Source: Candidatus Omnitrophota bacterium (lineage in GTDB: Bacteria > Omnitrophota > Gorgyraeia > Zapsychrales > Fredricksoniimonadaceae). From it: 64,000 nucleotides of DNA. Shown in pieces: positions 1,153-42,587 of this stretch. How positions within the stretch are numbered: position 1 is the first letter of the stretch; the number at the start of each line of letters is the position of its first letter. The stretch covers positions 82,917 to 146,916 of the forward strand of contig JBGAJA010000002.1 of assembly GCA_044225175.1 (NCBI GenBank). Reading direction: 5' to 3'. The notes beneath the pieces are model-generated. The model was not told the origin of the DNA, made no database searches, and saw only the letters and a program-made list of their open reading frames with translations. Made by a program: the position numbers and the translations under genes.

Positions 1153-1155
1153 GGT

Positions 1156-1854
1156 TTATTTAATGATCCCCAAAAAATTCTCATAAAGACGGTTTGCTTG
1201 AGATCGAAATTGTTGTTCATAACGGACATAATCATTGAGCATGTTCTGAGCATGCTCTGGTCTTCCTGGAAGATCGTTTTGGCAATATTCATCACACCAT
1301 TCTTTAATGCTTTTATCTGTGACTTCGACGTGGAATTGCAAACCATAAGCATTTGCGCCCACTTTGATGGCTTGATGAGGACAACCTTGGGCCGTTGCTA
1401 ACAAATTACCCTCGGATGGTATCTCAAACATATCTCCATGCCAATGATAAATAGGTTCGTTTTCTTTAAAACCTTTAAATAACGGATCTTTCTGCCCTTC
1501 GGGAGTTAACTGGACATTGTACCAGCCAATTTCTTTGACGGGAGATTTGACGACCTTAGCACCTGCGGCTTTGGCTAAAAGCTGCGAGCCTAAACAAATC
1601 CCTAAGAAAGGAATTTGCTTCTTTAAAACTTCTTGAATAAAAATGTGCTCCTGAACTAAGAAGGGATACTGGTTTTCTTCGTAAACATTCATGGGTCCGC
1701 CAAGAACAACAACAGCACTAATGTCAGAGAAATCCTCAGGAAGAATTTCCCCTTCCCCTAAATCTATTATTCGATAAGGAATCTTTCTTTCATCCAGAAA
1801 TTCCCCCAATGTCCCAGGGCCTTCGATATCGATATGTTTGACGATTAAAATCAT
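1156..1854 (-). CDS. Class I glutamine amidotransferase (GMP-synthase-like GATase1, stand-alone)
   Basis: 232 aa with the catalytic GICLG Cys motif and an FHVE His-Glu pair. Its stop lies 4 nt from the nadE start, so they are probably co-transcribed. Confidence 0.7.
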   Translation of the reverse strand: MILIVKHIDIEGPGTLGEFLDERKIPYRIIDLGEGEILPEDFSDISAVVVLGGPMNVYEENQYPFLVQEHIFIQEVLKKQIPFLGICLGSQLLAKAAGAKVVKSPVKEIGWYNVQLTPEGQKDPLFKGFKENEPIYHWHGDMFEIPSEGNLLATAQGCPHQAIKVGANAYGLQFHVEVTDKSIKEWCDEYCQNDLPGRPEHAQNMLNDYVRYEQQFRSQANRLYENFLGIIK

Positions 1855-1961
1855 AGCAAGATATTACCATGAAATTCTAAAATCGCATTTTCGATTTTCA
1901 TGGTAATTAAAAAGGGGCGGATAAAATTTATCCACCCCTTTTTATGTTATCGATTCATTGA

Positions 1962-4106
1962 TTATGCATTCATCAAAAGCATTTCTGCATAAGAAGGAAC
2001 AGGCCAAATGGCTTGTGGCACATATGCTTCTAAGGCATCAATGGATTGACGCAATTTGCTCATGGCTGCATTGGTTTTAGCGGAATCGTGTTTGGCTATT
2101 CCAGCTTCCAAAGCATCACAGGTTGTAAGAGCATCATCAATCAAACCAGAGATTGTCTTTAAGATTTTCTTTTGAGCAATCATCTTACCTGCAGCACCGA
2201 CTGTTCTAACATTCTCTGCTAACTCTCTTTGATATTCAATTGCAGCTGGAATCAACTGTGTGCGAGCCATGGTTAAAGCACAGTTACCTTCCAAGGCAAT
2301 GACTGTATTGTAAGCATGGACGTTGATTTCGTAACGAGAAGCAACTTCTTTGGCAGAAAGAACACTGTGTTTAACCAACACATCAATATTCTTTTTAGCT
2401 TTAAGAACTTCTAAAGCTTCAGGAGTTGTTTTCATGTTAGGAAGTCCGCGTTTCTTTGCTTCTTTGTGCCAATCAGCGGTGTAACCATCGCCATTAAACA
2501 GCACGCGTTTATGTTTCTTGATGATCTCTTGTAAGATCTTTTGAAGGCTGGCATTGAATTCTTTACCAGCTTTTTTATCTGCTTCTAATTGATCGGCAAT
2601 CTCACTCATCGCTTGAGCGACAATGGTGTTTAACACAGTATTTGCTGCGGAAGGATTTTGATTTGAACCAACAGCGCGGAATTCAAACTTAGCACCCGTG
2701 AAAGCAAATGGTGAGGTGCGGTTACGATCTGTTGTGTCCTTAGCTAATGAAGGAAGTGAATCAACACCGACGTGGATACTGCCTCCTTCGCGTGAAGATT
2801 TAGCCCCACCTTTTTCAATTTGCTCAACGATATCAAATAATTGATCGCCTAAGAAAATGGAAACGATAGCTGGAGGAGCTTCGTTTGCACCTAAGCGGTG
2901 ATCATTACCAGCGGTTGCAACAGTCATACGAAGAAGATCTGCGTATGTATCAACGGCCTTAATAATGGCACAAAGGGTTGTTAAAAATTTAGCATTTTCA
3001 TGAGGAGTTTTTCCAGGATATAACCAATTTTTGCCATCAGGACCGACGACAGACCAGTTATTGTGTTTACCAGAACCATTGATGCCGGCAAATGGTTTTT
3101 CATGAAGCAAACATGTTAGCCCATGTTTATCAGCTAACTGTCTCATGATTTCCATGGCCATCATGTTGTGATCAACACCTGTGTTTAAATCTTCATAGAT
3201 TGGAGCCATTTCGTATTGAGCGGGAGCAACTTCATTGTGACGTGTCTTGGAAGGAATGCCTAAGCCCCATAGTGTACGGTCCAAATCTTCCATGAAAGCC
3301 ATTACTCGAGGTTTAATTGCCCCAAAATAATGATCTTCTTGTTGCTGGTGTTTAGCTGGTGTGCGTCCGAATAATGTTCGTCCGGTTTGAACCAAGTCTA
3401 AACGAGCTTGATAATGAGCTTTATCAATTAGGAAATATTCTTGTTCTGGTCCTAAGGTGCAGTAGGCACGTTTGCCTTTAACATCAATTCCAAAAAGGCT
3501 TGCTAAACGGCAGACTTGCTTGGATAAAGCATCCATAGAACGCAATAATGGGGTCTTTTTGTCTAAGGCTTCCCCATGATAACCAATGTAGAAGGTTGGA
3601 ATGCAAAGTGTAGCACCTTCTGGACCTTCTTTAATGAAGGCAGGAGAGGTTGGATCCCAGCCGGTATAACCACGAGCTTCGAATGTTGCACGTAAACCAC
3701 CTGAAGGAAAAGAGGATGCATCAGGTTCGCCTTGAATCAATTCTTTACCAGAGAAGGTTAAAGAAATACCGCCTTGATCGTTCCAGCTGATGAAAGAATC
3801 ATGTTTTTCAGCCGTTGTACCGGTCAGAGGCTGAAACCAATGTGTAAAGTGGGTTGCACCTTTGGAAATTGCCCAATTCTTCATGGCTTCGGCTACTTCA
3901 TCGGCAATTGTTGCATCTAACTTGCCGCCTTCTTTGATTGTTTTCTCAATCGAAGAATAAGCTTTGGGTGATAAAACTTCCTTCATCACCTTCAAATTGA
4001 ATACATTTTGACCGAAATTTGCTGGCAAATTGCTGGCGAACGTGCCATCACAGCAGCATCCTTCATCAGCACAAGCGTCTATTACTTCTTTACGTCCTTG
4101 ACTCAT
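1962..4106 (-). CDS. glnN: Glutamine synthetase type III (GSIII)
   Basis: 714 aa, the size of GSIII, with the characteristic N-terminus [16 protein letters not shown]...[14 protein letters not shown].... A GGGGGA Shine-Dalgarno sits 7 nt upstream. Confidence 0.9.
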
Positions 4107-4159
4107 AATGTAATCCCCCTGTTGTTAGGTTGAAGTTAAATATGTCCATAAAAGAAAAA

Positions 4160-4203
4160 GTCCCCCTTGAAATCTAACCAACTTTGGTATTTCAAGGAGG
4201 ACT
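4160..4203 (-). terminator. Leader intrinsic terminator between the glnN promoter and the glnN start (14-bp stem followed by U-run on the minus-strand RNA). It also lies downstream of glnK1.
   Basis: tcccccttgaaat...atttcaaggagga inverted repeat, followed on the minus strand by TTTTTCTTTT. Confidence 0.6.
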
Positions 4204-4230
4204 TCTTTGCCCTCTAAACTTAAGGCCTAA

Positions 4231-4259
4231 ATAATAATTAATACGCTTAAATCTGTCAA
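4231..4259 (-). promoter_or_regulatory. Sigma70-type promoter for glnN (TTGACA-17-TATTAT, read on the minus strand)
   Basis: Reverse complement of tgtcaa at 4254-4259 and ataata at 4231-4236, with a 17-nt spacer. Confidence 0.55.
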
Positions 4260-4290
4260 GAAAAAATTCCTTGAACGACCTAAAGGGCTG

Positions 4291-4632
4291 TTATCCAATG
4301 GCTTTTGAACCTTCTTCGCCGGTGCGGATGCGAATGGCACGAGGCAAATCAAGGACGAAAATCTTGCCGTCTCCGATTTTTCCTGTGCGCGCACCTTTGA
4401 TAATCGCCTTAATTGTAGGCTCCACGTAGTCGTCATTGACGGCTATTTCCACTTGGATTTTACGAAGAAGATTACCTGTTTCTTTGACCCCGCGATAAAA
4501 TTCATCAACACCAATTTGGCGGCCATGACCTAAGACTTCCAAGACAGTAATTAAACTCACTTGAGCTTCATATAATGCAGTTTTCACATCTTCGAGCCTG
4601 TGCGGCTGGATGATTGCGATGATTAATTTCAT
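4291..4632 (-). CDS. glnK: PII nitrogen regulatory protein (copy 1)
   Basis: 113 aa: [17 protein letters not shown]...[29 protein letters not shown]...[12 protein letters not shown]. The T-loop is conserved, a GGAGG Shine-Dalgarno is present, and it lies downstream of amt. Confidence 0.9.
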
Positions 4633-4652
4633 TTAAAATCCTCCGTATTATT

Positions 4653-4712
4653 CGTAGGGGCGACCCTTGCGGTCGCCTTATTATTGGGCAGGTGCTAGAC
4701 CTGCCCCTACGA
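4653..4712. repeat. Composite REP/BIME-like element (two hairpins, GTAGGGGCGACC..GGTCGCC and GGGCAGG..CCTGCCCCTAC) in the amt1-glnK1 spacer
   Basis: Direct reading. Outer arms CGTAGGGG / CCCCTACG, and internal hairpins gcgacc-cttgc-ggtcgc and gggcagg-tgctaga-cctgccc. Confidence 0.7.
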
Positions 4713-4716
4713 TTAT

Positions 4717-5955
4717 TTAATCCAAAATCGTATATGCACGTTCATGGTGTTGTGTTAAATCTAATCCCATGATTTCATCTTCGGCGCTCACGCGCATACG
4801 AATGATCTTATCGGTCACGAAGCAAATAATCCATGTCATCACGCCACAATACAAAACAGCAACGACGGCACATTTTAATTGGATAAAGAATTGCTGCGGA
4901 TTACCCAGAAACATGCCATCTGCTCCAGCAGGATTAACTGCTTTGGTGCCGATTAATCCAATGGCTAATACTCCCCAAAATCCACTCACTCCATGAACAC
5001 CAAAAGCATCTAGCGTGTCGTCGAATTTAAATTTCTGTTTAAATGAGCTGATTGCAAAGAAACTTAAAAGACTTGCTCCTGCACCAACAATCAAAGCTCC
5101 TTGAAAATCAACAAACCCGCAAGAAGGGGTGATTGCAACTAACCCTGCAACTGCTCCTGAAATGGATCCGTACATCGTTGGTTTTCCGGATAAAGCCCAT
5201 TCTAATATGGCCCACACCACAACAGCTGCACTCGCTGCAGCATTTGTTGTAATAAAAGCATTCACCGCAACGCCATTGGCTCCTAAAGCAGAGCCCGCAT
5301 TAAATCCTAACCATCCAAACCACAGCAAACATCCTCCCATGACAACCATAGGAATATTATGCAGACTTGGTTTTGAAACTCCAATTCTCTTGCCTAAGTA
5401 AATGGCTGTAATCAACCCTGCAACTCCACAATTGATTTCAATGACAGTTCCTCCCGCAAAATCCAAAAGGCCCCAGCCACGAAATAAACCGCCTGTCCCC
5501 CAAGCCATATGAGCCATAGGACAATACACAAAAGTAAGCCATAGCACTGTGAACAATAAGAATGCAGAGAATTTAACACGTTCCGCATAAGAACCCACAA
5601 TAATGGCAGGAGTAATAACCGCAAACATGCATTGGAAGATCATAAATGCACTATGTGGAATAGTTGCGGAATAATCGGGGTTGGCATCTGCTCCAACTCC
5701 TTTAAGCATTAACCAATCAAATCCTCCAAAGAGCCAATTGCCTGTTGAAAAAGCCAAACTATACCCATACATACCCCATATAATACTAATCACAGCCAAG
5801 CAGGCCATGCACTGCATCAAAATACCTAGAACGTTTTTACGACGAACCATTCCTCCATAAAAGAACCCTAACGCGGGCGTCATAAGTAACACCAAAGCAG
5901 CTGACACTAACACCCATGCCGTATCCCCGGCACTGATTTGATTGACTGAATCCAT
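4717..5955 (-). CDS. amt: Ammonium transporter (Amt family), copy 1
   Basis: 412 aa polytopic membrane protein: MDSVNQISAGDTAWVLVSAALVLLMTPALGFFYGGMVRRKN. Confidence 0.9.
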   Translation of the reverse strand: MDSVNQISAGDTAWVLVSAALVLLMTPALGFFYGGMVRRKNVLGILMQCMACLAVISIIWGMYGYSLAFSTGNWLFGGFDWLMLKGVGADANPDYSATIPHSAFMIFQCMFAVITPAIIVGSYAERVKFSAFLLFTVLWLTFVYCPMAHMAWGTGGLFRGWGLLDFAGGTVIEINCGVAGLITAIYLGKRIGVSKPSLHNIPMVVMGGCLLWFGWLGFNAGSALGANGVAVNAFITTNAAASAAVVVWAILEWALSGKPTMYGSISGAVAGLVAITPSCGFVDFQGALIVGAGASLLSFFAISSFKQKFKFDDTLDAFGVHGVSGFWGVLAIGLIGTKAVNPAGADGMFLGNPQQFFIQLKCAVVAVLYCGVMTWIICFVTDKIIRMRVSAEDEIMGLDLTQHHERAYTILD

Positions 5956-6041
5956 ATAGATACTTCTCCTTCATACCATTCTCCATTTGACCTAGTTCTC
6001 CGTCGGCGGATCCTGTGGCATCTATGCCTTATAAAAACAAA

Positions 6042-6084
6042 GAAGCTCAGAGATGTTCTCTTTGAAAGAACATCTCTGAGCTTC
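6042..6084 (-). terminator. Leader intrinsic terminator between the amt1 promoter and the amt1 start (perfect 17-bp stem followed by U-rich run on the minus strand)
   Basis: gaagctcagagatgttc-tctttgaaa-gaacatctctgagcttc, with an A-run on the + side at 6031-6041. Confidence 0.65.
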
Positions 6085-6134
6085 TTCGCTCTTATTAATT
6101 GAAGACCTCATTGCCCCCAATCCAATTGAGGGCA

Positions 6135-6163
6135 ATGATATCGTCAAAATTTTGAAATGTCAA
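6135..6163 (-). promoter_or_regulatory. Sigma70-type promoter for amt1-glnK1 (TTGACA-17-TATCAT, minus strand)
   Basis: Reverse complement of tgtcaa at 6158-6163 and atgata at 6135-6140, with a 17-nt spacer. Confidence 0.5.
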
Positions 6164-6191
6164 GTAAGGGCGTATTGCAATACGCCCTTAC
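6164..6191. repeat. 28-nt perfect palindrome GTAAGGGCGTATTGCAATACGCCCTTAC (REP-like, GTA...TAC ends), 3 nt after the glnK2 stop
   Basis: Direct reading. It has the same 28-nt length and GTA...TAC architecture as the in-frame palindromes at 10974 and 11130. Confidence 0.7.
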
Positions 6192-6193
6192 AA

Positions 6194-6535
6194 TTATCCG
6201 ATTGCTTTAGAACCTTCTTCACCAGTACGGATACGAATCGCACGAGGAAGATCCAAGATAAAGATCTTTCCATCGCCGATTTTTCCTGTACGAGCACCTT
6301 TGATAATGGCTTTGATCGTTGGTTCCACATAATCTTCGTTCACTGCAATTTCAATTTGGATCTTACGAAGAAGATTACCTGTTTCTTTGACTCCGCGATA
6401 AAATTCATCGACTCCAACTTGACGGCCATGGCCCAGAACTTCCATAACTGTAATTAAGTTTACATCTGCCGCGTATAGCTCTTTTTTAACATCTTCGAGT
6501 CTATGGGGCTGTATGATTGCAATCACTAATTTCAT
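6194..6535 (-). CDS. glnK: PII nitrogen regulatory protein (copy 2)
   Basis: 113 aa, about 85% identical to copy 1. Confidence 0.9.
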   Translation of the reverse strand: MKLVIAIIQPHRLEDVKKELYAADVNLITVMEVLGHGRQVGVDEFYRGVKETGNLLRKIQIEIAVNEDYVEPTIKAIIKGARTGKIGDGKIFILDLPRAIRIRTGEEGSKAIG

Positions 6536-6564
6536 TTAAAATCCTCCTTGATTTATATATTGAT

Positions 6565-6593
6565 GTACGGGCACCGCATGCCGTGCCCCTACG
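6565..6593. repeat. REP element GTACGGGCACCGCATGCCGTGCCCCTACG in the amt2-glnK2 spacer
   Basis: Palindrome gggcacggcatgccgtgccc flanked by GTAC/CTAC. It is the same family as the copy at 23398. Confidence 0.75.
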
Positions 6594-7844
6594 TTAATCT
6601 AAAATCGTATACGCACGTTCATGATGTTGTGTTAAATCAAGACCCATGACTTCATCTTCTTGAGATACACGAAGACCCATGACTTTATCAATTGCAAAAC
6701 AGATAATCCAAGTGGCGATTGCGGTGTAACCAATTGTGACTGAGCAAGCCACGAATTGATTCCACAATTGAGCCCCATTACCTAATAAAAGACCATCTGC
6801 ACCAGCACCATTGACTAACTTGGTTGCAAAGATACCTGTTGCCAAAGCACCCCATAACCCGCCGATACCATGGATACCGAAAGCATCGAGTGTGTCATCA
6901 TAACCAAACTTCGGTTTTACATAAGCAACCATGCAATAGCAGAAGATGCTAACTAAGAAACCAATCCATAAAGAACCACCGATGTCGACGAAACCGCAAG
7001 CAGGAGTAATTGCAACCAACCCTGCAACTGCACCGGAGACGACACCAACCATTGTTGGTTTTCCTGCAAAGATCCATTCCATCAAAGCCCAGCTAAGTGC
7101 AGCAGCAGCTGTGGCTGTGTTGGTTGTGACAAATGCATGAGCTGCTAAACCACTTGCACCTAAAGCAGAACCTGCATTGAAACCAAACCATCCAAACCAG
7201 AGTAAAGCAGCACCAATCACAATAAAAGGAACATTGTGCATACCTGGCTTTTCGGTATGACCAATACGCTTACCTAAATATAAGGCTGTAACCAAACCTG
7301 CAATACCTGCGTTGATATGAACAACAGTACCGCCAGCAAAGTCTAAGGCGCCTAAACCACGTAAGAACCCGCCAACACCCCAAACCATGTGTGCAATTGG
7401 GCAATAGACTAAAAGCAACCATAATGCGGTAAAAACTAAGAATGCAGAAAACTTCATACGTTCAGCAAAGGATCCAATAATGAGCGCTGGTGTAATGACC
7501 GCAAACATACATTGGAAGATCATAAAAGCCAAATGAGGAATGGTCGCTGCATAATCAGCGTTAGCATCTTGTCCAACACCTTTAAGCATAAACCAATCTA
7601 AACCACCCATAAAGGCGCTTCCCTTACCAAATGCTAAACTGTAACCTATTACCACCCATAAAATACTCACCAAAGCCAAGCACACAAAACATTGCATAAA
7701 AACACCTAAGATGTTCTTACGTCTAACCATACCTCCGTAAAATAAAGCGAGTGCTGGAACTGTCATCAACAAAACTAGTGCAGTTGATGCCAATACCCAT
7801 GCCGTGTCCCCGGCATTGATTGGATTTACTATTGTTGTATCCAT
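6594..7844 (-). CDS. amt: Ammonium transporter (Amt family), copy 2
   Basis: 416 aa, paralogous to amt1. Confidence 0.9.
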   Translation of the reverse strand: MDTTIVNPINAGDTAWVLASTALVLLMTVPALALFYGGMVRRKNILGVFMQCFVCLALVSILWVVIGYSLAFGKGSAFMGGLDWFMLKGVGQDANADYAATIPHLAFMIFQCMFAVITPALIIGSFAERMKFSAFLVFTALWLLLVYCPIAHMVWGVGGFLRGLGALDFAGGTVVHINAGIAGLVTALYLGKRIGHTEKPGMHNVPFIVIGAALLWFGWFGFNAGSALGASGLAAHAFVTTNTATAAAALSWALMEWIFAGKPTMVGVVSGAVAGLVAITPACGFVDIGGSLWIGFLVSIFCYCMVAYVKPKFGYDDTLDAFGIHGIGGLWGALATGIFATKLVNGAGADGLLLGNGAQLWNQFVACSVTIGYTAIATWIICFAIDKVMGLRVSQEDEVMGLDLTQHHERAYTILD

Positions 7845-7881
7845 TTACTTCCTCCTTGATTGTTTGTTAAACAATAAAAAA

Positions 7882-7917
7882 GCCCAATTCCCCGCAACCT
7901 TTTTGCGAAAAATTGGA
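7882..7917 (-). promoter_or_regulatory. Second terminator-like hairpin in the amt2 leader, directly before the start codon (stem GCCCAATT/AATTGGGC followed by U6)
   Basis: Minus strand reads cccaatt[tttcgcaaaaaggttgcgggg]aattgggcttttttatt. Confidence 0.45.
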
Positions 7918-7954
7918 CCTCTGTGTCCCGTAGGCATCATAGCCTAAATAAAAA

Positions 7955-7993
7955 ATCCTCTTAAAGGAGTTTCATTACTTCCTTAAAGAGGAC
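7955..7993 (-). terminator. Intrinsic terminator in the amt2 leader. It also lies downstream of the 1045-aa gene.
   Basis: tcctcttaaagga...tccttaaagagga stem with one mismatch, then TTTTTTATTT on the minus strand. Confidence 0.55.
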
Positions 7994-8059
7994 TATCTTT
8001 GCCCTTACTTCTTACTTCACGCCCAAAACATCTTTGCTTTGAGCTAAATAACTGGTGCA

Positions 8060-8088
8060 AATATATCTGATGCTTTTGGCTTTGTCAA
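8060..8088 (-). promoter_or_regulatory. Sigma70-type promoter for amt2-glnK2 (TTGACA-17-TATATT, minus strand)
   Basis: Reverse complement of tgtcaa at 8083-8088 and aatata at 8060-8065. Confidence 0.5.
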
Positions 8089-8097
8089 ATTGTTTTT

Positions 8098-11000
8098 TCA
8101 GATCTTAGCCAATTGCTCTTGTTCTCGTCCAGGATTTGTAGAATTATCCTTCAATCCTAACAGAGGTCTCATTTGCATAATGTTCAGCGGTGTTATCTGA
8201 ATGATCACAGGTTCAGCTGAGAATATGCCTTGAACTTTAATACGTGCAATCATGGCTGGATCGAAATTCACTTTAACCTCACCGTTAACATCTTTCATCA
8301 CACTCATGCCCATGTTGGCACTGTTTAAATCAATACCACCGGGAGAAGAACTGTGGGCTGAATCTGTGGTTAATCCTTTATTTATTGAGGCATCGGTGGA
8401 TCTAGCTCCTTGACCAGCAAAACTTTTGGACATGGCGAAATCGGAAAACCGTTCAACCATACTATCAATAGACTTACCATTCACATTTTTAATGGTATCT
8501 ATTTCATTTCGGAACCTATTGGCTAATTCGTAAGCTGTTAAATCAGTGGGGAAATTCCTTATATAACTTATTATTTTTCCATCCTCTTTTTTTTCTATAA
8601 TTAATTTTCTTTGATTACTTCCCAAATCTTCAGCTTTAACCATCCAACCTTTCTTAGAAAGCATATTTGCTGATACTCTAACTCTGACTACTTTTTTACT
8701 CCTAGCCCTCGCTGCATTAACAGCTGGCTTAGCTGCCATGGCGGAGTCATATGGTCGGGGGAAACGGTTGTTAACAAGATCACAAAGAGTAGTCACCGTC
8801 CATGGTTTATCAAAAATATTATCCCTCTCTTGATCTGAGAACTCCGTAATGGATAATTCTCTCTGTATTGTTGAAAACAACCCAAATTCTTTGTTATATC
8901 TATTTTTTCCTAAATTAACCGAAGGAGTATCGCTGTCCTTAAGGGAACCCTTTGCTAATCCAAATTGTCTTTCTATAATTTCAATAACTTTTTGTTTTCG
9001 TCCTTTGTTCTGAATGTCATATTTTATGAATCTAATCCATTTTCCTAGTTGATCTTGATTATACGATTGCACTCCAATACTATCTGTATTGTTTTCATCT
9101 GCCTTAAGTAGATGTCTTCCTTCAAAATATTCATTTTTTATTGCTTCATAAATTTCTTTGTCTTCTGGAAACAATCTTGACAAGACGAGAATTTCAACAA
9201 AATTAGTATTACGACTCGAATTTTCTAAAAAACTGCCATAAAACTCATCGATAAAACGGATAACACGATCATATTCAAATTCTTTCCCATTCTTAAACTT
9301 AATCTTCACCTCCATCGCTGCGTCGTTAGATGCGATGGCCGCATCGGAGAATTTCTTTGGCTGACTGGCTATCATGGCTAGATGAGGTAAGGCTGCTTTC
9401 ATATCATTAACTTTAGCGATCATTGCCTCGCTCACATCAGGTCTCCAGCGATCGTCTCTTGCAGTAGTATCAATATGATTAGGAAGAGAAGCGGCTAAAG
9501 CTGCCAATTTTGCAATTTCAAGCGGTGCAAATCTTTGGTCTATTCTCAAGGGAAGGTATCCTCTATCAGCACCAAAGCGCTCGGAGAAGTTTGATTCTAC
9601 AATCAACATCACCGTAGGGTTTTCATATGTATAAGCAAAAGGTTCCCATTGGTCTATTTCTTCTTTAAAACTGTCTGGCATAATTACAAAAAGAGTGGCT
9701 GGTTCATACGCAGATAAAGCCCGACGATAATAAAATCCTTTAGCAACGGTTTTTGTGATCGAGCCTCCTCTGACCGTCTGTTGTGCTGTTAATTGCAAAT
9801 TCAATTGATCTCTAAAAGAAACTGTTGCTTCTTGAGGTCCAAAAACTATTCTAAAGCCTCGTGGACTACCATCACTCCATATAAGATTCCCATGCTCATC
9901 TTGTGAATACCCTTGATTGGATTGGTTAAAATGCAACATCGCTGAGTCGGAAGATTTGACTGCTATGGCCCGTTGTGGATTAAAAGCACCATTAATATTT
10001 AAGGCTGTTGTGATACGTTGGAACGAAGAGCCTGTGGGGGTAGCCACAGTGGCTGCATCCATTAAATTGTGCGATACACTAAGCATTGCTTCATTAGGCC
10101 CTTGGTATCCCCCTGAGAAGTATTTTCGTGGAATTCTTTGACCCGTAAGCTTGCCCTGAGCGTCAGTCAAAGGGTCTTCTTTGATATAGTTGAATACACC
10201 CTTCTTATATGCCTGAAGATACTGCTGGTAGATTTGTTCTTTTACAGATGGATCAGAAAGGTTGACGCCTTTAATTGTATTTTTATTGGAATAGACCTGA
10301 TTAATAAGCGCTTCTTTAAGGTTCTTTTTGTACCATATAGCCAGAATCTGGGAATTGAAGATTTGGCGTAATGTGGCGAAGTTTTTGCCGGTGTTGACTT
10401 CTTTTTCGATTTCAGGAATGACGATGTCTCGAATGATTTGGCTGCTGATGACGTTGGGGGTATTTCCCTGGGTTGCTTTCACATTCAACGCTGTCTCGCT
10501 TGGCAACCTGCTTGGGGACACGTTCTGGTTGTTCTTGTTAGGAACATGTCCCCTGGTTGGCATTTGGTTTTTATCTCTGGCTAGATAATCTTCCTCCAAC
10601 ATCACCTTCAAATGCCCATCTACAACAAAGGCTGTTTGTCCATGTTCATATACACTGGCTTTATCGGCTAGAATCCACACCTTATTAAAGGTGTTAACTG
10701 GTATCTGAGCATTGGGACCGTAGATTGCTTGGGCTTTGGCATAGACTCTGTTCCAAAACTCTTTTCCTAGGTCTTTCTCTGGATAGATCAAAGATGCGGT
10801 TAACTGTTTGAGGATGTAGTCTTGGGCTAAAAGATCTCTGCCTAAGGCTGTTTGGCCTAAGGCTTCAGGAACTATACGGTCTTTTTCATAGGGGCTTAGG
10901 TTCACCCATAGGTCTTTCTCTGGAACGGTTAGGCAGGCGAAGAAATATTTAACCAAACGGTCGCCTTCTTGATGTAGAGACGCAAGATCTTGCGTCTCTA

Positions 11001-11235
11001 CAGATAGGCCGGAATTCCCGGTATCTACGATAAAATCAAATAAAAATGGATTATCTTTATGAACAGTTAAACCTTTGATTAAGGTTGGTTCAAAGGCTGG
11101 GCTTAAATTGACCATGGTTCCAGGAATAGGTAGAGACGCAAGATTTTGCGTCTCTACTGCATGTGATTTAGGAATAATAATTGATGTGCATGAAAAGGTA
11201 AGAATAACCAGGGAAGCAGTAACCTTCTTAAACAT
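8098..11235 (-). CDS. Giant secreted protein B (1045 aa), a paralog of the 1848-aa protein. It has a signal peptide. Its N-terminal domain of about 330 aa and a short C-terminal module (GGIDxxS...) are shared with A. Function unknown.
   Basis: Long ORF. N-terminus ...CLTVPEKDLWVNLSPYEKDRIVPE...NTFNKVWILADKASVYEHGQTAFVVDGHLKVMLEEDY aligns with protein A. Signal peptide MFKKVTASLVILTFSCTSIIIPKSHA. Confidence 0.75.
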   Translation of the reverse strand: MFKKVTASLVILTFSCTSIIIPKSHAVETQNLASLPIPGTMVNLSPAFEPTLIKGLTVHKDNPFLFDFIVDTGNSGLSVETQDLASLHQEGDRLVKYFFACLTVPEKDLWVNLSPYEKDRIVPEALGQTALGRDLLAQDYILKQLTASLIYPEKDLGKEFWNRVYAKAQAIYGPNAQIPVNTFNKVWILADKASVYEHGQTAFVVDGHLKVMLEEDYLARDKNQMPTRGHVPNKNNQNVSPSRLPSETALNVKATQGNTPNVISSQIIRDIVIPEIEKEVNTGKNFATLRQIFNSQILAIWYKKNLKEALINQVYSNKNTIKGVNLSDPSVKEQIYQQYLQAYKKGVFNYIKEDPLTDAQGKLTGQRIPRKYFSGGYQGPNEAMLSVSHNLMDAATVATPTGSSFQRITTALNINGAFNPQRAIAVKSSDSAMLHFNQSNQGYSQDEHGNLIWSDGSPRGFRIVFGPQEATVSFRDQLNLQLTAQQTVRGGSITKTVAKGFYYRRALSAYEPATLFVIMPDSFKEEIDQWEPFAYTYENPTVMLIVESNFSERFGADRGYLPLRIDQRFAPLEIAKLAALAASLPNHIDTTARDDRWRPDVSEAMIAKVNDMKAALPHLAMIASQPKKFSDAAIASNDAAMEVKIKFKNGKEFEYDRVIRFIDEFYGSFLENSSRNTNFVEILVLSRLFPEDKEIYEAIKNEYFEGRHLLKADENNTDSIGVQSYNQDQLGKWIRFIKYDIQNKGRKQKVIEIIERQFGLAKGSLKDSDTPSVNLGKNRYNKEFGLFSTIQRELSITEFSDQERDNIFDKPWTVTTLCDLVNNRFPRPYDSAMAAKPAVNAARARSKKVVRVRVSANMLSKKGWMVKAEDLGSNQRKLIIEKKEDGKIISYIRNFPTDLTAYELANRFRNEIDTIKNVNGKSIDSMVERFSDFAMSKSFAGQGARSTDASINKGLTTDSAHSSSPGGIDLNSANMGMSVMKDVNGEVKVNFDPAMIARIKVQGIFSAEPVIIQITPLNIMQMRPLLGLKDNSTNPGREQEQLAKI
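10974..11001. repeat. 28-nt perfect palindrome GTAGAGACGCAAGATCTTGCGTCTCTAC embedded in frame in gene B, encoding VETQDLASL
   Basis: Direct reading. Codons gta gag acg caa gat ctt gcg tct cta fall in the gene B frame. Confidence 0.8.
11130..11157. repeat. Second copy (27/28 identical) of the GTAGAGACGCAAGAT(T/C)TTGCGTCTCTAC palindrome, in frame in gene B. It encodes VETQNLASL at residues 27-35, immediately after the predicted signal-peptide cleavage site SHA.
   Basis: Direct reading. Residue V27 maps to 11155-11157. Confidence 0.8.
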
Positions 11236-11346: not shown

Positions 11347-11652
11347 TTACTCTGCTTTCTCAAATTCAAGCACAATTCCGCCTAAACGTGAGGCAATAAA
11401 GTTATAGAAGCCAGCAATCAAGCATCCTGTTAGGAAGCCTAATATTCCATTAATGATAGGCAACACTAGGATGGACCAAGCTCCCAGCCCCCACATTCCT
11501 GTCTCACCATTAACTAAAGATCCAAAAGTAACAATGATTCCAACCATTAAACCAACCAGTGTATGCAAAGCACTAAGGATGATCCCTAAGGATTTAAGGG
11601 AAATCTTCTTTAACTTGTAAATTATCGGTTCTCCTAAGACGGTATTCATCAT
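11347..11652 (-). CDS. Small membrane protein (101 aa, 2-3 predicted TM helices) between the two giant genes
   Basis: Hydrophobic ORF MMNTVLGEPIIYKLKKISLKSLGIILSALHTLVGLMVGIIVTFG.... It sits 19 nt after the stop of A and 111 nt before the start of B. Confidence 0.5.
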   Translation of the reverse strand: MMNTVLGEPIIYKLKKISLKSLGIILSALHTLVGLMVGIIVTFGSLVNGETGMWGLGAWSILVLPIINGILGFLTGCLIAGFYNFIASRLGGIVLEFEKAE

Positions 11653-11670: not shown

Positions 11671-14600
11671 CTATTCCGCCAATAATGTGTGGATCATGCT
11701 TTGAGAAACAGGTACAACCATTACAACTTCAGGCGTTATTCCATAGATGGATTGTATTGAAAAAGGCTCTATGCTAGGTTGATTAGTCCCTTGCTCTTGA
11801 AGATCTAATAAATGACTGTCCATATCAATGCCCCCTTTAATCTCAGAGAGGCCTTTAACAGGATTTGCGGTCATCATAGCCTGGTCTGAAGGAGATTTTC
11901 CAATCTCTTCAACCTTTGCAACCGTTTGAGGGTCAATCCCAATAGGTGAACGGGTAGTGTGAACGGAAATACTAGGATATGTCCAGGCCCGGTTCCAAAG
12001 GTGAATATCTTGAGGCTTAATACTCATCTTAAAAAGACCCAAATTGATCGTGAACTCAGGAAATATGGAAATGGTACTGGCCTTTTTATACATGGCATTA
12101 AACATCACCTTGTAAGCCATTAAACGGCCCAAAGGATCAAAAGCAAGGTTATTCATTTTCTTAATCACCTCACTATCCGTCGCATTTAATATCTGGCCTT
12201 GAATGTTGATGTGGTGATCTGTAATATTTTTATCTGAAAAATCCTCTCGGCCGATCGTAGTCACCTCTGCACCAGATACCAAACGATTGCCAAAAATACC
12301 ATTTCTAACCGCCTTAGCCTGTCTCAGAGTGACTTTAACAGCCTCTTTGGCCATTTGATCAACAGGAAGAGCACTAATAAGTTGTAGACCTCTGACAATG
12401 CGATGCGTAAATCTGGCTCCCAAATGATCTTCGGGGTTTCCTCCATGAACATTCATCGTCATGGAACCAGGCGCACGGGCCCCCATTTTGCTGACAAACG
12501 CAGTACTAATCTGATGCACAAAAGGAAGGTCTCCAATGACCATACTAGGAGGCCCCATTCTCGCCCATCGAGGCCTGCCGGTAAAGGTACGATAAATAAG
12601 TGTCGTAATTAAAAAAGGCGCCCACACCGCAACCATAAAGTCTGCTGTGGTTGCCCAAAAACCACTCATACTGCGAAGCGCAGGACCAGGGGGACATCCT
12701 AACGCATTCATGGCTAAATGAACTGGAGCTCCCATATAAAAAATACTAGCGACAAATGCTCTGAAGATAAAATTAACTTTAGGGGTTTCCAATAAATGTC
12801 CCCCGAGATACTGTCCATGATTAATTAGTTCTTGATGAACCTTGCTCTTAATGTCCCTGCCTTGCTCATCAACTCCTGTTATTCTTTTGGAATCTTTGAT
12901 CATTCCCTGAATCATGTCCTCGAGCCTTTTGAGATCGCTTTCTTGAACTTGTAAACCCCAAGGATTGTGATGAGGAAAAACTTCTCTTAATCGTTTAACC
13001 AAATGCCGTGTTAATAAAATCTGCTCTGCAAATAAAAGAATGTCTGAAGTAGGAGCTGCTTCTGCTGGATAGTAATCTCCCGTCGTAAAAATACGCCTTG
13101 TAAAAGGAGCATCCGGAGTTAATCTTTGCCCTAAAGCCATGTTGATCATGGCATCCAGACGAGAGGTCATCACAAATGTGTTGCCTTGAGTAATCTTATT
13201 TAAAAGTCCTGCTAAGGCCATGCTTGGAAATGTAGATCCGGAAAGAGATATGATTAAGCCGATTGTCCTATTGTTTATTTTAGATAGAGGGTCACGCAAT
13301 TTTTTATTAGAAGAGTTGGTTTCAATAGGCATTTTGGGCATAAAAATATGCAGTAATTGCTTAAAATTTTCACCTAACCACAAAGATTTTTCATAACCAC
13401 TAATATCTAAAACGGTGTTGTTGGAATCGTCCTTATTATTTAGTGTTTTTTGTTTTTGACGCAAACTTGAGATAGAACGATCAAAGTTAGCTATTAAATC
13501 ATCTAGAATTATTTTAATCTGAAGTTCGGTAAAAACCTGAAGCTCATGGTCCATTTGTTCAGCATGCTTTATAAGATCTTCATCTTTGATCTGTCTTGAT
13601 AGCAGCTTCTTATTTAAATCTTCTGCATAAGAAATAATGAAATTACTCGCCTGACTTTCAATGATGGCCACGATCAATGAGTTTTCCCAAGAAATGGAAT
13701 CTTGGTGCAAAAATTTCTTTTGATCTTCTGAACAAACCACTTGGCCTGATTCACAATCCTGTAAAAATTTGTGGATTCGCCTGACTACATCTGCACGCAA
13801 CAAAGAATACGTGAGGCTGTGTTTCTTTAAGAAATCTTCCACGTAACGAGAGGATGCCATTTCAGCAAAGGCTTCTGCAGATTGATAGTCAAAAGACCGT
13901 GGATTTTCCCAGTCCTTAACTTTGGTAGAGATGGCGTTGGATGTTCTTTCTAAATCTTCATCGATAATGTTTTGAGGATCTTTATATTCAATAGGGGGCT
14001 TGTAGTATGGATTATCTTCATTTAAAGAATAAAGCCGTTGTGAAATTTGTTCTGGGGTCAGATCTTTATTGCCGGAAGAACGCACCCTCACATAAAAGGC
14101 CTTTGTCTTTGAAAAACCAATGTCTGCAACCTCATCCTTTCTGGGATCTAACATAAATAACTTCTCTAAAGAACCTTTACTGCCAAATTTTCCCAATAAA
14201 ACCAAAGGGTCTGAGGCAAAGCTCAAAAACTTCTTCATTACATTAAAGCCAAACGCCATGCCTTGGGATTTTGAAAAAAGAGTCACTCCGTCATTTTGTA
14301 AAGAAGTCCTGACAACTAGCCCATAAGATCCTTCAGCTCTTTCTTTAAAATCCAAAGTGGCTTGAAAACGATTGCCAATAAAAAACCTTTCAACGGCCAT
14401 GTCCACAAATCGAATTCTAGTCTCTTGGCTTTGATTCCACCGACGTAAAATTTCTCCAGCTGGGGTTTGTTTTGAACCCTCTGCTTCTAAGCGTTTCACT
14501 AACTTTTCTTTAAACGCATTGATCTTGTGGTATTGAAACTTCAAATCCGGCCATTGATTAGCCATGTCTTTGCTTACCCACAAATCTTTAAATTCTTTAT

Positions 14601-17217
14601 TAGCCCCCAGATCAGGTCGCGAGAGCCCTGGGGCATCTTGGATAAAGATTTCTTCGAAGAGTTGCGCCATAGCATCTTCTTCTTCGATGTTTAGAATATC
14701 CCCCAAGGCTTCATCTGCTGTTTTATGATTGACCATGACATGGGCGTATCGAATCGATCCCCGCCAGCTGCCTTGAGTTAAATGAAAATGGATTTCTGGA
14801 GCCGTAGGTGGTGAGTCGCCCTCAGGCATATAGTCATAGCGCCCCTGGGTGCCCCTTTCTGGATCAGGAGGAATCCATACATCTTTCTTCATATGAACGA
14901 CTTTGCCAAAGAACTCTCGAATCTCTGTAAGATCAAGCATTCTGTCATGCAAATAATAATAATCATTGTCTCCGTTATGAGAGGTAGTGACCAAAACTTC
15001 TTTCTTATGGACCACCAGTTTTCCATCGCTAATTGCCCATTGAAGTCTTTCTTCTTTAGGACCTAAGAAAGGATGTGAGGCCCTTTTGCTGACAGCCCCT
15101 CCCGTGGCAAAACGCACATGACCATTGACTCCATGAACCATGACTTCACTATCAGCTGAATGCTTTGCTCCCTTGATGTCTTGTCTGAATTCACTGAGCA
15201 AGGAGCTTACTAAATCACTGCCTGCACCTCGTTTACTTTTAACGACCTTGGTCAAATAAACATTGGCTTCTCCATTAGAACCATCAATCATCACCTGTCC
15301 GGCCGACTGACCGCCTCTCACAATCAGACGCCTCATAAGCCCATCTACTCCCTCCTGCACCCATTGGGGATAAAGCCCTTGATTGGATTCATCAACCCAG
15401 AACACTCCATAATTGCCGCATTCGAATTTATCTGAATCAACAGGGAGTTTTTTAATGTCGGATTTCCATGAGGCCTTGATGGCATTCCATCCTGACACAC
15501 CGATAGGGCCTAAAAGAGGTAAAACCCAGGAATGTTCAAGCCCAAGAAAATAAGCGCTAATAGCTGTAGCGACTGTGGTAAGCCACGTTGCAGCGAATCC
15601 TGTATAATGGATGGTTTTTTTCCTCCAACCTTCACTGGAAAAAAGAACATAAGGGTTTTCTTTAGGTATTTGCCTCCAGGGTAATATTATTTGCAACCAT
15701 TGATTGAGACTGAAATTTGCTTTCAAATTATTAACACTTAAAGCTTCTTTCGATCGATGAGGATGGAATACGGCAGAGGACACAGCATGACCACCGACCT
15801 CATGAACCCCTATATTTAAGGCATATAATGCGCGTGTAATAAATGGCAAGGCAACCGCAGTCGTTATTAAACTCACTGGGTCCCATCCAACTGTACTAGT
15901 TGCTATGACCATGCCGCTACTCCAGCCTAAAAAATCCATCGATCTTGAGTATGTGGTCGCGGACTTTTGAGCAAAGTCTCTTTCTTTTCCTCCGACCAAA
16001 CGAGGAATAGAATTTCTAACTTCTCCTTCTATTAGCTTGAATGGATGCTTATTCGTCAAAGTTCTTTGATCAGGAAAACGCACAATGGAACCATGTTCAT
16101 CTGTAGCATTCAAATCGATAGTGGCCATGGCCAAATCACTGCCTAAGTCCATCCCTTGAGAATTCTCTATTTCACTGTAAACATGTTTGGTTTGAAGGCC
16201 GAATCCTATAAAATCCATCCCTCCTGATGCATATTTACGAGGAATAACTGTTTGATTTGAAGAATCATAATCTTCACGGATATAGTTATAAACCAGCTTT
16301 TTATATGCCTTCAGGTACTGTAAGAAAATCTTTTCTTTAATGTTCTTATCTTGAGCATCCACCCCTGTGATTTTATTTTTTCCAACATACTCTTGAGATA
16401 ACACGCTGCTTTTTAAATGTTTCTTGTACCATGTTGCTAAAATCATGGCATTGAAGACTTGGCGAACGACCGCAAAATTCTTTCCCTCATTGATTTCCCG
16501 CCTTAGTTCAGGAAGAATAATTTCTCGGACGATTTGGGCGTATTTTTCCGTAGGGGCAGGCCCCTGCCCGATATTTTTATCCATCGACACATAATCGTAT
16601 TCCAACATCACATCCAATTTGCTATCCACAACAAAAGCACTATCTCCCTTCACATAAACCTTGGCTGTTTTAGGGACGATCCAAACTTTATTAAAGGTAT
16701 TAATAGAAACATTGGTTGTGCCATAGATTTCTTGAGCCTTTAGATATATTTTTTGCCAAAACTTTCGGCCTAATTCATTTTCGGGGTAACTTAAAGAAGC
16801 CATGATTTGTTTAAGTAGATAGTCTTGTTCTAAAAGACTTTTCCCCATTTCCGTTCTACCAAAGTATTCAGGTGCAATGCGGTCCTTTTCATAGGGCGAA
16901 AGATTGACCCATAGATCACTTTCGGGAACTGTTAAGCAAGTAAGGAAATATTTGGTGAGTGTGGTAATTGCATCTTTTAAAGCTTGCCCTCTAAGGCCAG
17001 AAGCTCCTTCATCAATTAAGAAATCAAAACGCAAAGCATTATTCGTGTTGGTCTTAATCCCTTTTAATACCAAGGGTTTAAAAGAGGGGCTTGTAGAAAT
17101 CATCATCCCAGGAACAGGAAGATGAGGCATAGATTGAGCATGAGCATCCGGTAAAGGACCTAAGGAAGTAAGAAAAAATGCAAGAATGAGGATCTGAATA
17201 AGAATTTTCTTGATCAT
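11671..17217 (-). CDS. Giant protein A (about 1848 aa from ATG 17217; the ORF track uses an upstream TTG). It has a signal peptide, the shared N-terminal domain, several hydrophobic TM segments, an embedded class II (Ntn) glutamine-amidotransferase-like domain (residues about 604-760) and the shared C-terminal module. Function unknown.
   Basis: ...KFECGNYGVFWVDESNQG...RRLIVRGGQSAGQVMIDG...HGVNGHVRFATGGAVSKRASHPF...VTTSHNGDNDYYYLHDRM matches the GlmS/PurF/AsnB N-terminal motifs (CGIVG, RRLEYRGYDSAG, HTRWATHG..AHPH, VHNGIIENY). TM-like stretches include FIFRAFVASIFYMGAPVHLAMNALG and AVWAPFLITTLIY. Confidence 0.8.
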   Translation of the reverse strand: MIKKILIQILILAFFLTSLGPLPDAHAQSMPHLPVPGMMISTSPSFKPLVLKGIKTNTNNALRFDFLIDEGASGLRGQALKDAITTLTKYFLTCLTVPESDLWVNLSPYEKDRIAPEYFGRTEMGKSLLEQDYLLKQIMASLSYPENELGRKFWQKIYLKAQEIYGTTNVSINTFNKVWIVPKTAKVYVKGDSAFVVDSKLDVMLEYDYVSMDKNIGQGPAPTEKYAQIVREIILPELRREINEGKNFAVVRQVFNAMILATWYKKHLKSSVLSQEYVGKNKITGVDAQDKNIKEKIFLQYLKAYKKLVYNYIREDYDSSNQTVIPRKYASGGMDFIGFGLQTKHVYSEIENSQGMDLGSDLAMATIDLNATDEHGSIVRFPDQRTLTNKHPFKLIEGEVRNSIPRLVGGKERDFAQKSATTYSRSMDFLGWSSGMVIATSTVGWDPVSLITTAVALPFITRALYALNIGVHEVGGHAVSSAVFHPHRSKEALSVNNLKANFSLNQWLQIILPWRQIPKENPYVLFSSEGWRKKTIHYTGFAATWLTTVATAISAYFLGLEHSWVLPLLGPIGVSGWNAIKASWKSDIKKLPVDSDKFECGNYGVFWVDESNQGLYPQWVQEGVDGLMRRLIVRGGQSAGQVMIDGSNGEANVYLTKVVKSKRGAGSDLVSSLLSEFRQDIKGAKHSADSEVMVHGVNGHVRFATGGAVSKRASHPFLGPKEERLQWAISDGKLVVHKKEVLVTTSHNGDNDYYYLHDRMLDLTEIREFFGKVVHMKKDVWIPPDPERGTQGRYDYMPEGDSPPTAPEIHFHLTQGSWRGSIRYAHVMVNHKTADEALGDILNIEEEDAMAQLFEEIFIQDAPGLSRPDLGANKEFKDLWVSKDMANQWPDLKFQYHKINAFKEKLVKRLEAEGSKQTPAGEILRRWNQSQETRIRFVDMAVERFFIGNRFQATLDFKERAEGSYGLVVRTSLQNDGVTLFSKSQGMAFGFNVMKKFLSFASDPLVLLGKFGSKGSLEKLFMLDPRKDEVADIGFSKTKAFYVRVRSSGNKDLTPEQISQRLYSLNEDNPYYKPPIEYKDPQNIIDEDLERTSNAISTKVKDWENPRSFDYQSAEAFAEMASSRYVEDFLKKHSLTYSLLRADVVRRIHKFLQDCESGQVVCSEDQKKFLHQDSISWENSLIVAIIESQASNFIISYAEDLNKKLLSRQIKDEDLIKHAEQMDHELQVFTELQIKIILDDLIANFDRSISSLRQKQKTLNNKDDSNNTVLDISGYEKSLWLGENFKQLLHIFMPKMPIETNSSNKKLRDPLSKINNRTIGLIISLSGSTFPSMALAGLLNKITQGNTFVMTSRLDAMINMALGQRLTPDAPFTRRIFTTGDYYPAEAAPTSDILLFAEQILLTRHLVKRLREVFPHHNPWGLQVQESDLKRLEDMIQGMIKDSKRITGVDEQGRDIKSKVHQELINHGQYLGGHLLETPKVNFIFRAFVASIFYMGAPVHLAMNALGCPPGPALRSMSGFWATTADFMVAVWAPFLITTLIYRTFTGRPRWARMGPPSMVIGDLPFVHQISTAFVSKMGARAPGSMTMNVHGGNPEDHLGARFTHRIVRGLQLISALPVDQMAKEAVKVTLRQAKAVRNGIFGNRLVSGAEVTTIGREDFSDKNITDHHINIQGQILNATDSEVIKKMNNLAFDPLGRLMAYKVMFNAMYKKASTISIFPEFTINLGLFKMSIKPQDIHLWNRAWTYPSISVHTTRSPIGIDPQTVAKVEEIGKSPSDQAMMTANPVKGLSEIKGGIDMDSHLLDLQEQGTNQPSIEPFSIQSIYGITPEVVMVVPVSQSMIHTLLAE
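16548..16570. repeat. REP-family sequence (GGGCAGG-cc-CCTGCCCCTACGG on the coding strand) embedded in frame in gene A, encoding GQGPAPTE, in a region that differs from paralog B
   Basis: Direct reading. It has the same CCTGCCCCTAC half as the intergenic REP at 4690-4712. Confidence 0.6.
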
Positions 17218-17231
17218 AATGGCTTTCAAAT

Positions 17232-23397: not shown

Positions 23398-23429
23398 CCC
23401 GTAGGGGGCACGGCATGCCGTGCCCGTAC
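23398..23429. repeat. REP element CCCGTAGGGGGCACGGCATGCCGTGCCCGTAC in the nuoM-nuoN spacer
   Basis: Same family as the copy at 6565, in the opposite orientation. Confidence 0.75.
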
Positions 23430-23447
23430 TGTACAGAAAGAATACAC

Positions 23448-24910: not shown

Positions 24911-24942
24911 TTGGGTTTGATGAATCAAACCCCTACGGATTT
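24911..24942. repeat. Hairpin GGGTTTGA-TGAA-TCAAACCC plus CTACGGATTT that overlaps the stop codon of the RAYT gene. A 30/32 copy lies inside the RAYT CDS at 25197-25228.
   Basis: Direct reading. The last codons of the RAYT gene (aat ccg tag) are part of the element. Confidence 0.7.
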
Positions 24943-25466
24943 ACATTATTTGGATCTGTTTCCCACATTTGAGGATTATTAATAATGTATTGCCGTATCT
25001 GCATTAATTCTTTTTCATGACGAATGATATGTTCATAATAATTACGTTGCCATGCAAATGTGCTATTTTTAGCGTGAATTAATTTTGTGGTTTTCGCCTT
25101 AAAATGTCTAATAATTTTCCCTAACGAAACATCGTGTTGTTGCATCAATCGCCATGATTCCGTAGGGGCATGATTTATCATGCCCTTATGAATGTCTTGG
25201 GTTTGATGAATCAAAACTCTACGGATTTCAATAATTCCATGAATATGATTTGGCATAACTACAAACGTATCCATATAAATTGGATAATGTTTTGGTAATT
25301 GATCCCAAACTGATTGCACCATTTGGCCGGAATCATTTAAAATCATGCGCTCATTAATAATCTGACCAAATAAATGCATCCGGTAATTTACACATATGGT
25401 CAAAAAATAATAACCCGCAGATGAATAATCATATCCTTTCAAGCGTAATGAACTTCTTTTGGGCAT
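24933..25466 (-). mobile_element. REP-associated tyrosine transposase (RAYT; IS200/IS605 TnpA-like HuH Y1 transposase), single copy
   Basis: 177 aa with the HuH motif MPNHIHGII and the catalytic Tyr motif QRNYYEHIIR. REP-like palindromes with GTAG/CTAC ends are scattered through the window. Confidence 0.8.
25162..25185. repeat. REP-like palindrome GTAGGGGCATGA-tttat-CATGCCC inside the RAYT CDS, in frame, encoding ...GMINHAPTE...
   Basis: Direct reading. Together with the copy at 25197-25228 (encoding EIRRVLIHQTQ), it accounts for an insertion of about 20 aa between the HuH and Tyr motifs relative to typical RAYTs. Confidence 0.6.
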
Positions 25467-25516: not shown

Positions 25517-25541
25517 ATTTGTGACGCACTGCGTCACAAAT
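25517..25541. promoter_or_regulatory. Perfect palindrome ATTTGTGACGC-act-GCGTCACAAAT in the RAYT 5' leader (candidate operator or RNA hairpin)
   Basis: 11-bp arms, located between a candidate promoter and the RAYT ATG. Confidence 0.5.
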
Positions 25542-42545: not shown

Positions 42546-42587
42546 ATGGGTTAACAAAGATTGTAAAGACGAAGCAGTGCCGCGTCT

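Follow-up and report, generated by a model that had tools for sequence, protein, structure and literature searches.

Two near-identical 28-bp palindromes lie in frame inside one protein-coding gene of a Candidatus Omnitrophota bacterium. They are very probably repetitive extragenic palindromic (REP) sequences of the double-foot class that goes with subclass 2.4 of the REP-associated tyrosine transposases (RAYTs, also named TnpA-REP), which entered this gene in this lineage and are carried there as near-neutral passengers. The gene, here called gene B (8098-11235, minus strand), is part of a stretch of 64,000 nucleotides (contig JBGAJA010000002.1, positions 82,917 to 146,916) that is referred to throughout as the window. 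In this study we document the repeat family, its link to RAYT genes in other genomes, its absence from the closest homologues of the host protein, the positions that it takes in that protein, and the recurrence of REPs at the same linkers in other members of the family. Most likely, the REPs are near-neutral passengers and not functional parts of the protein, and a recent arrival of both copies is suggested because they are near identical and their palindromy is intact.

Two double-foot palindromes in frame in gene B

Copy 1 (GTAGAGACGCAAGATCTTGCGTCTCTAC, 10974-11001) is a perfect 28-bp double-foot palindrome, which reaches 30 bp when the flanking T and A are included, and it encodes VETQDLASL at residues 79-87 of gene B (site 2). 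Copy 2 (11130-11157) is identical to copy 1 at 27 of 28 positions and encodes VETQNLASL at residues 27-35 (site 1); its arms are perfect over 12 nt, and the single differing base lies in its centre, GATT on the plus strand, which is non-palindromic. The copies are spaced 156 bp from start to start, with 128 bp in between, and each has a 5' GTAG and a 3' CTAC, that is, a double foot. The arms span 12-14 bp, with local hairpin energies of -19 to -30 kcal/mol. An earlier note made from the letters of this DNA had described the two elements, their spacing, their REP-type GTAG...CTAC ends and the two peptides, and all of these were found again, the peptides by reading the minus-strand open reading frame (ORF). 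Among 100 dinucleotide-preserving shuffles of the window, no match to the 28-mer with up to 3 mismatches appeared, and the 64-kb window itself holds no further copy or half-site within one mismatch. The palindromes are genuine and go well past what chance would give.

The host protein is large rather than giant, as the earlier note had called it: gene B encodes 1045 aa, beginning with a signal peptide and an N-terminal domain of about 370 aa. Its tandem paralog, gene A (11671-17229, minus strand; 1852 aa), has a signal peptide as well, has this N-terminal domain in common with B and is without 28-mers; at both REP positions its sequence is shorter and unrelated, as had been claimed. The first 379 residues of B have 1374 database homologues, almost all of them, where named, from metagenome-assembled genomes of Candidatus Omnitrophota/Omnitrophica, with a signal-peptide-like N-terminus and many invariant positions in common. 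These homologues, and the conserved sequence on both sides of the REPs, indicate that gene B is genuine, and a sigma-70-like site is found 60-90 nt upstream of its ATG. Sequence searches placed proteins A and B in no Pfam, NCBIfam or PDB family; a single PDB match, to huntingtin (E = 0.006), was judged spurious.

The likely signal-peptidase site of B was placed from the n-h-c layout and an A-x-A box kept across homologues, and copy 2 follows it directly (...IIIPKSHA), in agreement with the earlier note. Site 1 would thus form the first nine residues of the mature protein. In an AlphaFold (AF2) model of the N-terminal domain, which is of moderate confidence (mean predicted local distance difference test, pLDDT, 75; predicted template modelling score, pTM, 0.67), residues 23-32 at site 1 have a pLDDT below 50, and site 2 falls at a coil-to-helix junction, where it would form the loop into the first long helix of the domain (residues 84-103).

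The same element in other genomes

One genome per species was searched for GTAGAGACGCAA-N4-TTGCGTCTCTAC, which gave at least 120 loci (L001-L120), with 126 exact copies among the matches listed. These loci belong to Bacteroidota, Chloroflexota, Planctomycetota, Acidobacteriota, Cyanobacteria, Patescibacteria, Proteobacteria, Omnitrophota and others, and cultured strains are included. The four-nucleotide centres among the matches listed are mostly palindromic themselves, AATT being found 43 times and TGCA 25 times. A full-text literature search for GTAGAGACGC gave nothing but unrelated primer sequences.

Nine loci among the matches listed carry a homologue of the RAYT encoded in the window (see below), and in nine of nine the palindrome lies at, beside or inside the RAYT gene. 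The TAG of the GTAG foot serves as its stop codon, or the palindrome stands just upstream or downstream, or it lies in frame within the gene; the in-gene copies come after the HuH motif and read VETQNFASL or, in the other open frame, RDAMHCVST. With respect to genes in general, 30 of the 126 copies (24%) are located within ORFs of at least 200 aa at a depth of 30 codons or more; for random positions the share is 69%. The repeat is found chiefly outside genes and is not barred from them.

These loci also bear on the idea that the palindromes in gene B are an artefact of assembly or sequencing, to which we give almost no credence. The sole independent contig of the same organism (Logan contig L124, run SRR28480385) covers window positions 1-10423 and breaks off within gene B some 550 bp short of the first REP, which leaves the palindromes themselves without a second assembly. 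Nevertheless, over these 10,423 nt the window and the contig are 100% identical, the 1045-aa ORF stays open through both copies with conserved sequence on each side, and the same element recurs in at least 120 loci of independent assemblies, including those of cultured isolates.

As a separate observation, the 12-nt arms GTAGAGACGCAA and TTGCGTCTCTAC are identical across about a dozen labelled phyla, including cultured Bacteroidota and Cyanobacteria, and only the centre varies. This suggests either tight constraints on the recognition of REPs by RAYTs or horizontal spread. Insertion of the element into pre-existing hairpins was considered and rejected: 86 of the 126 copies have no extension of the palindrome into their flanks, about 95 being expected by chance, and the flanks are mostly no more complementary than chance.

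Fit of the palindromes to two variable linkers

The N-terminal domain of B was compared with the best 120 of its 1374 homologues, of which the top ones reach 66-68% identity. VETQxLASL occurs at site 1 or site 2 in none of these 120, which bears out the claim that the peptides are specific to this lineage. The earlier note had pointed out that relatives with the same peptide in non-palindromic codons would mark it as an ancestral protein motif whose palindromy is incidental, and this explanation can be regarded as effectively refuted. One homologue, P0117, does read VETPSLESL at site 2 from an imperfect palindrome, and the terminal Leu of the REP peptides coincides with a family-conserved Leu. 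However, the peptide is missing from all of the best 120 homologues, identical 12-nt arms turn up in many phyla, be it between genes, in RAYT genes or in unrelated ones, and a perfect 28-bp palindrome is not expected from coding constraints.

Both sites are length-variable linkers of the N-terminal domain. The modal length in the family is 5 residues at site 1 and 18 at site 2, compared with 8 and 23 in B, and in a codon alignment of B with paralog A and homologue P0003 each linker is taken up entirely by the palindrome. The last codon of the REP, CTA, encodes at both sites the Leu that is conserved in the family, and L35 is at least 90% conserved. Owing to its palindromy, the element has the same three reading frames on both strands: VETQxxASL and RDAxxCVS are open, and the third is a TAG stop followed by RRKILRLY. 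Stops in the other frames had been proposed as a sign of selection for in-frame insertion; just one of the three frames has such a stop. With two of three phases open, the in-frame position is therefore weak evidence of selection.

In the reading that we favour, the 28-mers would have been mobilised in trans by a RAYT, through cleavage of single-stranded DNA beside the GTAG foot, would have entered gene B, and would now fill its two length-variable linkers. Their persistence would depend on the use of the stop-free frame V-E-T-Q-x-L-A-S-L, on a total length that stayed a multiple of three, and on the last REP codon, CTA, which would supply the conserved Leu at both sites. No RAYT carrying the 28-mer type of REP was seen in the window.

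The same linkers are used again in other family members

Repeats at the linkers of the B family were checked at the DNA level, and both sites turned out to be occupied by palindromic sequences in other members. At site 2, the homologue L054, 52% identical to B, carries the same 28-mer in the same frame (GD|VETQNLASL|RDESTRLIKYF), as one copy only; P0117 has a decayed copy, GTTGAGACGCCATCATTGGAGTCTCTAC, which encodes the VETPSLESL mentioned above; in P0045, two GTAGGGGC REPs form an inverted dimer; and the hairpin repeats of P0061 and P0106 are unrelated ones (VIPAQAGI and SSPNASVGDP). At site 1, P0067 and the metagenome loci L127 and L131 carry tandem hairpins of the GTAGAGACGCCA type (VETPFMAS, 2-3 copies). 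In addition, JGI metagenomes were scanned for the REP in its site-1 context (GCGTCTCTACC-N4-CC-N-GG-N4-ATG), which gave 7 matches with 2 family members, both of the GCCA tandem type, and no second GCAA insertion at site 1.

The simplest reading of this pattern is that the linkers tolerate almost anything and that the family is very large. Repeat-signature peptides are also found in the third and later variable regions of the B family, which agrees with tolerance rather than homing.

Points against the favoured reading

Several observations weigh against the favoured reading. First, just two copies of the 28-mer type are present in about 72 kb of the source genome (the 64-kb window plus 8 kb extra from the same organism, in Logan contig L124), and both are in gene B. 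The only RAYT in the window has REPs of the GTAGGGG type inside it and at its stop. Second, protein B had no identical database entry and no close orthologue of gene B was present in the databases searched, the best having 68% N-terminal identity, so that the insertions are undatable. Third, relative to homologues the net increase amounts to +6/+9 nt for site 1 and +9/+15 nt for site 2 instead of +28, and simple cut-and-paste does not account for the junctions. The claim of insertion made in the earlier note is thus upheld in one part and not in the other: the peptides are absent from homologues, but a gain of 6-15 nt means that these are not clean 28-bp insertions. Judging from the junctions, older linker sequence would have been lost, or the element would have come by a process that replaces sequence. 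Fourth, intragenic copies elsewhere, among the matches listed, use the VETQ frame 22 times and the RDA..CVS frame 8 times, a bias that points to the possibility of more than passive tolerance. Finally, the same REP in the same frame and the same linker of L054, a protein only 52% identical, could likewise mean more than passive tolerance.

A further question is whether the linkers are preferred landing sites of double-foot REPs, or whether the REP-encoded V...L peptides or the mRNA hairpins are positively selected there. The case for it is made by the 28-mer at site 2 of L054, the related GCCA-type REPs at site 1 in another lineage, the conserved Leu and the 22:8 frame bias, and we consider it improbable as a whole. 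If it were true, REPs would time and again bring new sequence to the exposed N-terminus and the first loop in a large family of surface proteins.

Predicted pairing of the two copies

The two palindromes are predicted to pair with each other, and they might have been co-opted for this: as a 28-bp mRNA duplex that controls translation or RNase III decay, or as recombination or cleavage sites for the in-frame loss of a module. We regard such co-option as highly improbable. Minimum-energy folding of the 5'-terminal 291 nt of the mRNA does predict that the copies join as a 28-bp duplex (-80 kcal/mol, z = -5.7 relative to shuffles). They are also in phase (156 bp equal 52 codons, so that a deletion would be in frame) and flank the most conserved 43-aa segment, and the same REP is present at site 2 of L054. 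However, any two copies of a palindrome pair in silico, L054 has a single copy, most family members, the closest included, are without a REP at either site, and the other occupants of the linkers are unrelated hairpin repeats. An Rfam scan of the REP region gave nothing above the gathering score, and the only terminator-like site in the region (11378-11396, minus strand) lies upstream of gene B and away from both palindromes. Inversion of the segment between the copies would create a stop codon, for which reason an inversion switch was rejected. The mRNA duplex and the in-frame spacing are treated here as by-products of the presence of two palindromic copies and are not taken to indicate a function.

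REPINs, as reportedly described by Bertels and Rainey in 2011, are REP doublets with a spacer that form hairpins and are the repeated mobile unit. The arrangement in gene B is like a REPIN in having two nearby REPs able to pair. A REPIN was rejected as a description of it: the 128-bp spacer is conserved host coding sequence that is also found in homologues without REPs, and no second doublet was seen in the window or in the metagenome scan.

The RAYT gene and a second REP family in the window

The earlier note had also reported a RAYT gene in this DNA. The gene is present (24933-25466, minus strand) and encodes a RAYT/TnpA-REP-like protein of 177 aa, with NHIH at residue 73, WQ at 139 and YIINNP at 160, in agreement with the subclass 2.4 motifs NH[IFV]H, WQ and YIxNNP. 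It scores 31.6 bits against Pfam Y1_Tnp (cut-off 23) and 61.8 bits against NCBIfam REP_Tyr_transpos, below the cut-off of 80. A connection between this gene and the 28-mers, at which the earlier note had hinted, is not borne out: the window RAYT carries the other REP type.

This other type makes up a second REP family, with a GTAGGGG(C) foot and variable stems, which has at least 7 members in the window and is more abundant than the 28-mer. One member (GTAGGGGCATGATTTATCATGCCC, 25162-25185, plus strand) lies inside the RAYT gene, in frame between the HuH and Tyr motifs, and is translated as HKGMINHAPT; another (GTAGGGGTTTGATTCATCAAACCC, 24913-24936, minus strand) provides with its TAG the stop codon of the gene. 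A further member (GTAGGGGCAGGCCCCTGCCC, of the GTAGGGGC family; 16550-16569, plus strand) is in frame in gene A, where it encodes NIGQGPAPT from residue 219, in the third variable linker. Outside genes, an inverted pair of the GTAGGGGC type is found at 4654-4710 (4654-4677 on the plus and 4686-4710 on the minus strand), and GTAGGGGCACGGCATGCGGTGCCCGTAC (6565-6592, minus strand) lies between an ammonium-transporter gene and a 113-aa ORF (6194-6535), which is identified as P-II solely via the gene call on the identical Logan contig. Finally, GTAGGGGGCACGGCATGCCGTGCCCGTAC (23401-23429, plus strand) is located in the NADH-dehydrogenase cluster, at the 19-bp gap between two ORFs of 492 aa (21917-23395 and 23415-24893); it runs across the position predicted as the start of the latter, whose true start may therefore be further downstream.

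Did the window RAYT nevertheless mobilise the two 28-mers? It is a true Y1/HUH gene, has the motifs of subclass 2.4 and lies 14 kb from them, and subclass 2.4 has been reported with both double-foot and 'canonical long' REPs (three G-C pairs at the stem base), both of which types occur in the window. Against this, the REPs inside it and at its stop codon belong to the GTAGGGG type, as do the loop peptides of its nearest homologues (P0122-P0128), which have the same loop type, RRGLIHQT...GMINHAPT. The RAYTs that do go with the GAGACGCAA palindrome share 33-43% identity with it across full-length matches and make up the 'GPQSKNLASIIRGFK' group, and REPs and RAYTs are reported to co-evolve. We therefore hold a role of this RAYT to be unlikely.

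The loop between the motifs deserves a remark of its own. Among RAYT homologues P0121-P0240, the post-HuH loop could be extracted in 91 of the best 120, and the majority include stretches that resemble translated REPs, frequently arranged as inverted pairs, such as VGAQFIAP...GAINRAPT, RGLINQTPT, VGANNYSPLQ and VGAIHESPLQ. The REP type is apparently readable from the RAYT protein sequence, and the presence of such peptides has already been reported for subclass 2.4 (PMC6006769). An identical copy of the RAYT gene of the window was recovered from SRR28480381 and from SRR28480388, each time on a contig of roughly 1.1-1.3 kb, and a 25-bp palindrome, ATTTGTGACGCACTGCGTCACAAAT (25517-25541), lies 50 bp upstream of its start.

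Comparison with known systems

TnpA-REP subclass 2.4 is associated with 'double foot' REPs, which have a 5' GT[AG]G and a 3' C[TC]AC, occur in Bacteroidetes, Cyanobacteria and scattered phyla, and can be found in frame in tnpA-REP itself, between its HuH and Y motifs (Quentin et al. 2018, PMC6006769). These published features are reproduced for the GAGACGCAA palindrome, with two differences: the host is here a secreted structural-type protein of Omnitrophota and not a transposase gene, and the RAYT of the window carries the other, GGG-foot type. The 28-mer is a REP of a known class that behaves in a known way, and it points to no new mechanism.

In a survey of GTAG REPs, Di Nocera et al. (2013, PMC3733652) described elements wholly inside ORFs, sometimes two per ORF, as in Opitutus terrae, noted that the TAG of a REP can serve as stop codon, and proposed that flexible linkers and loops tolerate REPs. 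Gene B resembles these cases in its intragenic GTAG palindromes, two per ORF and situated in linkers, and the TAG stop is matched at RAYT genes. In contrast, the stems in that survey, which predates Omnitrophota genomes, are mostly 6-9 bp long, compared with the 12-bp arms found here, and it includes one same-site case, in Xanthomonas recB, without any protein family in which identical linkers were hit again and again (PMC3733652). The repeated occupation of linkers goes beyond the published descriptions that we found.

Rickettsia palindromic elements (RPEs), to which the earlier note had likened the 28-mers, are also palindromic repeats that lie in frame in apparently functional genes, as the open 1045-aa frame of B suggests for the present case. 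RPE-1 is much longer than 28 bp, and we know of no description of a RAYT link for RPEs. The 28-mers, 28 bp long and GTAG-tagged, are set apart from the RPE families by the descriptions of the latter; for example, the intragenic RPE-4 and RPE-6 of R. conorii are CGTC-tagged repeats (Di Nocera et al. 2013, PMC3733652). The resemblance thus holds for the in-frame behaviour, but the 28-mers are not members of an RPE family.

Other palindromes and gene order in the window

The window contains further palindromic elements. A perfect 29-bp palindrome, CAATTCGAGACGCAGTGCGTCTCGAATTG (26808-26836), is in frame (IRDALRLEL) in a gene of the DUF1016 family (26556-27110, minus strand); it has the core GAGACGCA in common with the 28-mers and is without GTAG feet. 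A degenerate double-foot element, GTAAAGACGAAGCAGTGCCGCGTCTCTAC (42563-42591), lies in the gap between the ORFs 41448-42557 and 42588-43457 and overlaps the stop of the latter. Three hairpins are clustered (6031-6191) between the 113-aa ORF (6194-6535) and the ammonium-transporter gene next to it: two of them are long and imperfect (6031-6095 and 6099-6147), and one is a perfect 28-bp palindrome, GTAAGGGCGTATTGCAATACGCCCTTAC (6164-6191). As for gene order, the succession of Oxidored_q3 (NADH-dehydrogenase chain 6), GAF-ANTAR and B-family genes in the window is found again on the contig of a relative, P0002.

Implications

The peptides VETQxxASL, RDAxxCVST, VGAxxxxP and xxINxAPT are repeat-derived, and they call for caution when proteins are annotated. 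Since the junctions in gene B are not simple 28-bp insertions, they provide useful material for the study of how REPs enter coding DNA. The positions at which repeats are found can also be used as a map of the insertion-tolerant parts of a protein domain that is otherwise uncharacterised. More broadly, the in-frame 'decoration' of proteins by REPs is extended to Omnitrophota, a largely uncultured phylum, and the B family offers an unusually clean natural experiment, in which the same two or three linkers of one large paralogous family have been refilled by different palindromic repeats.

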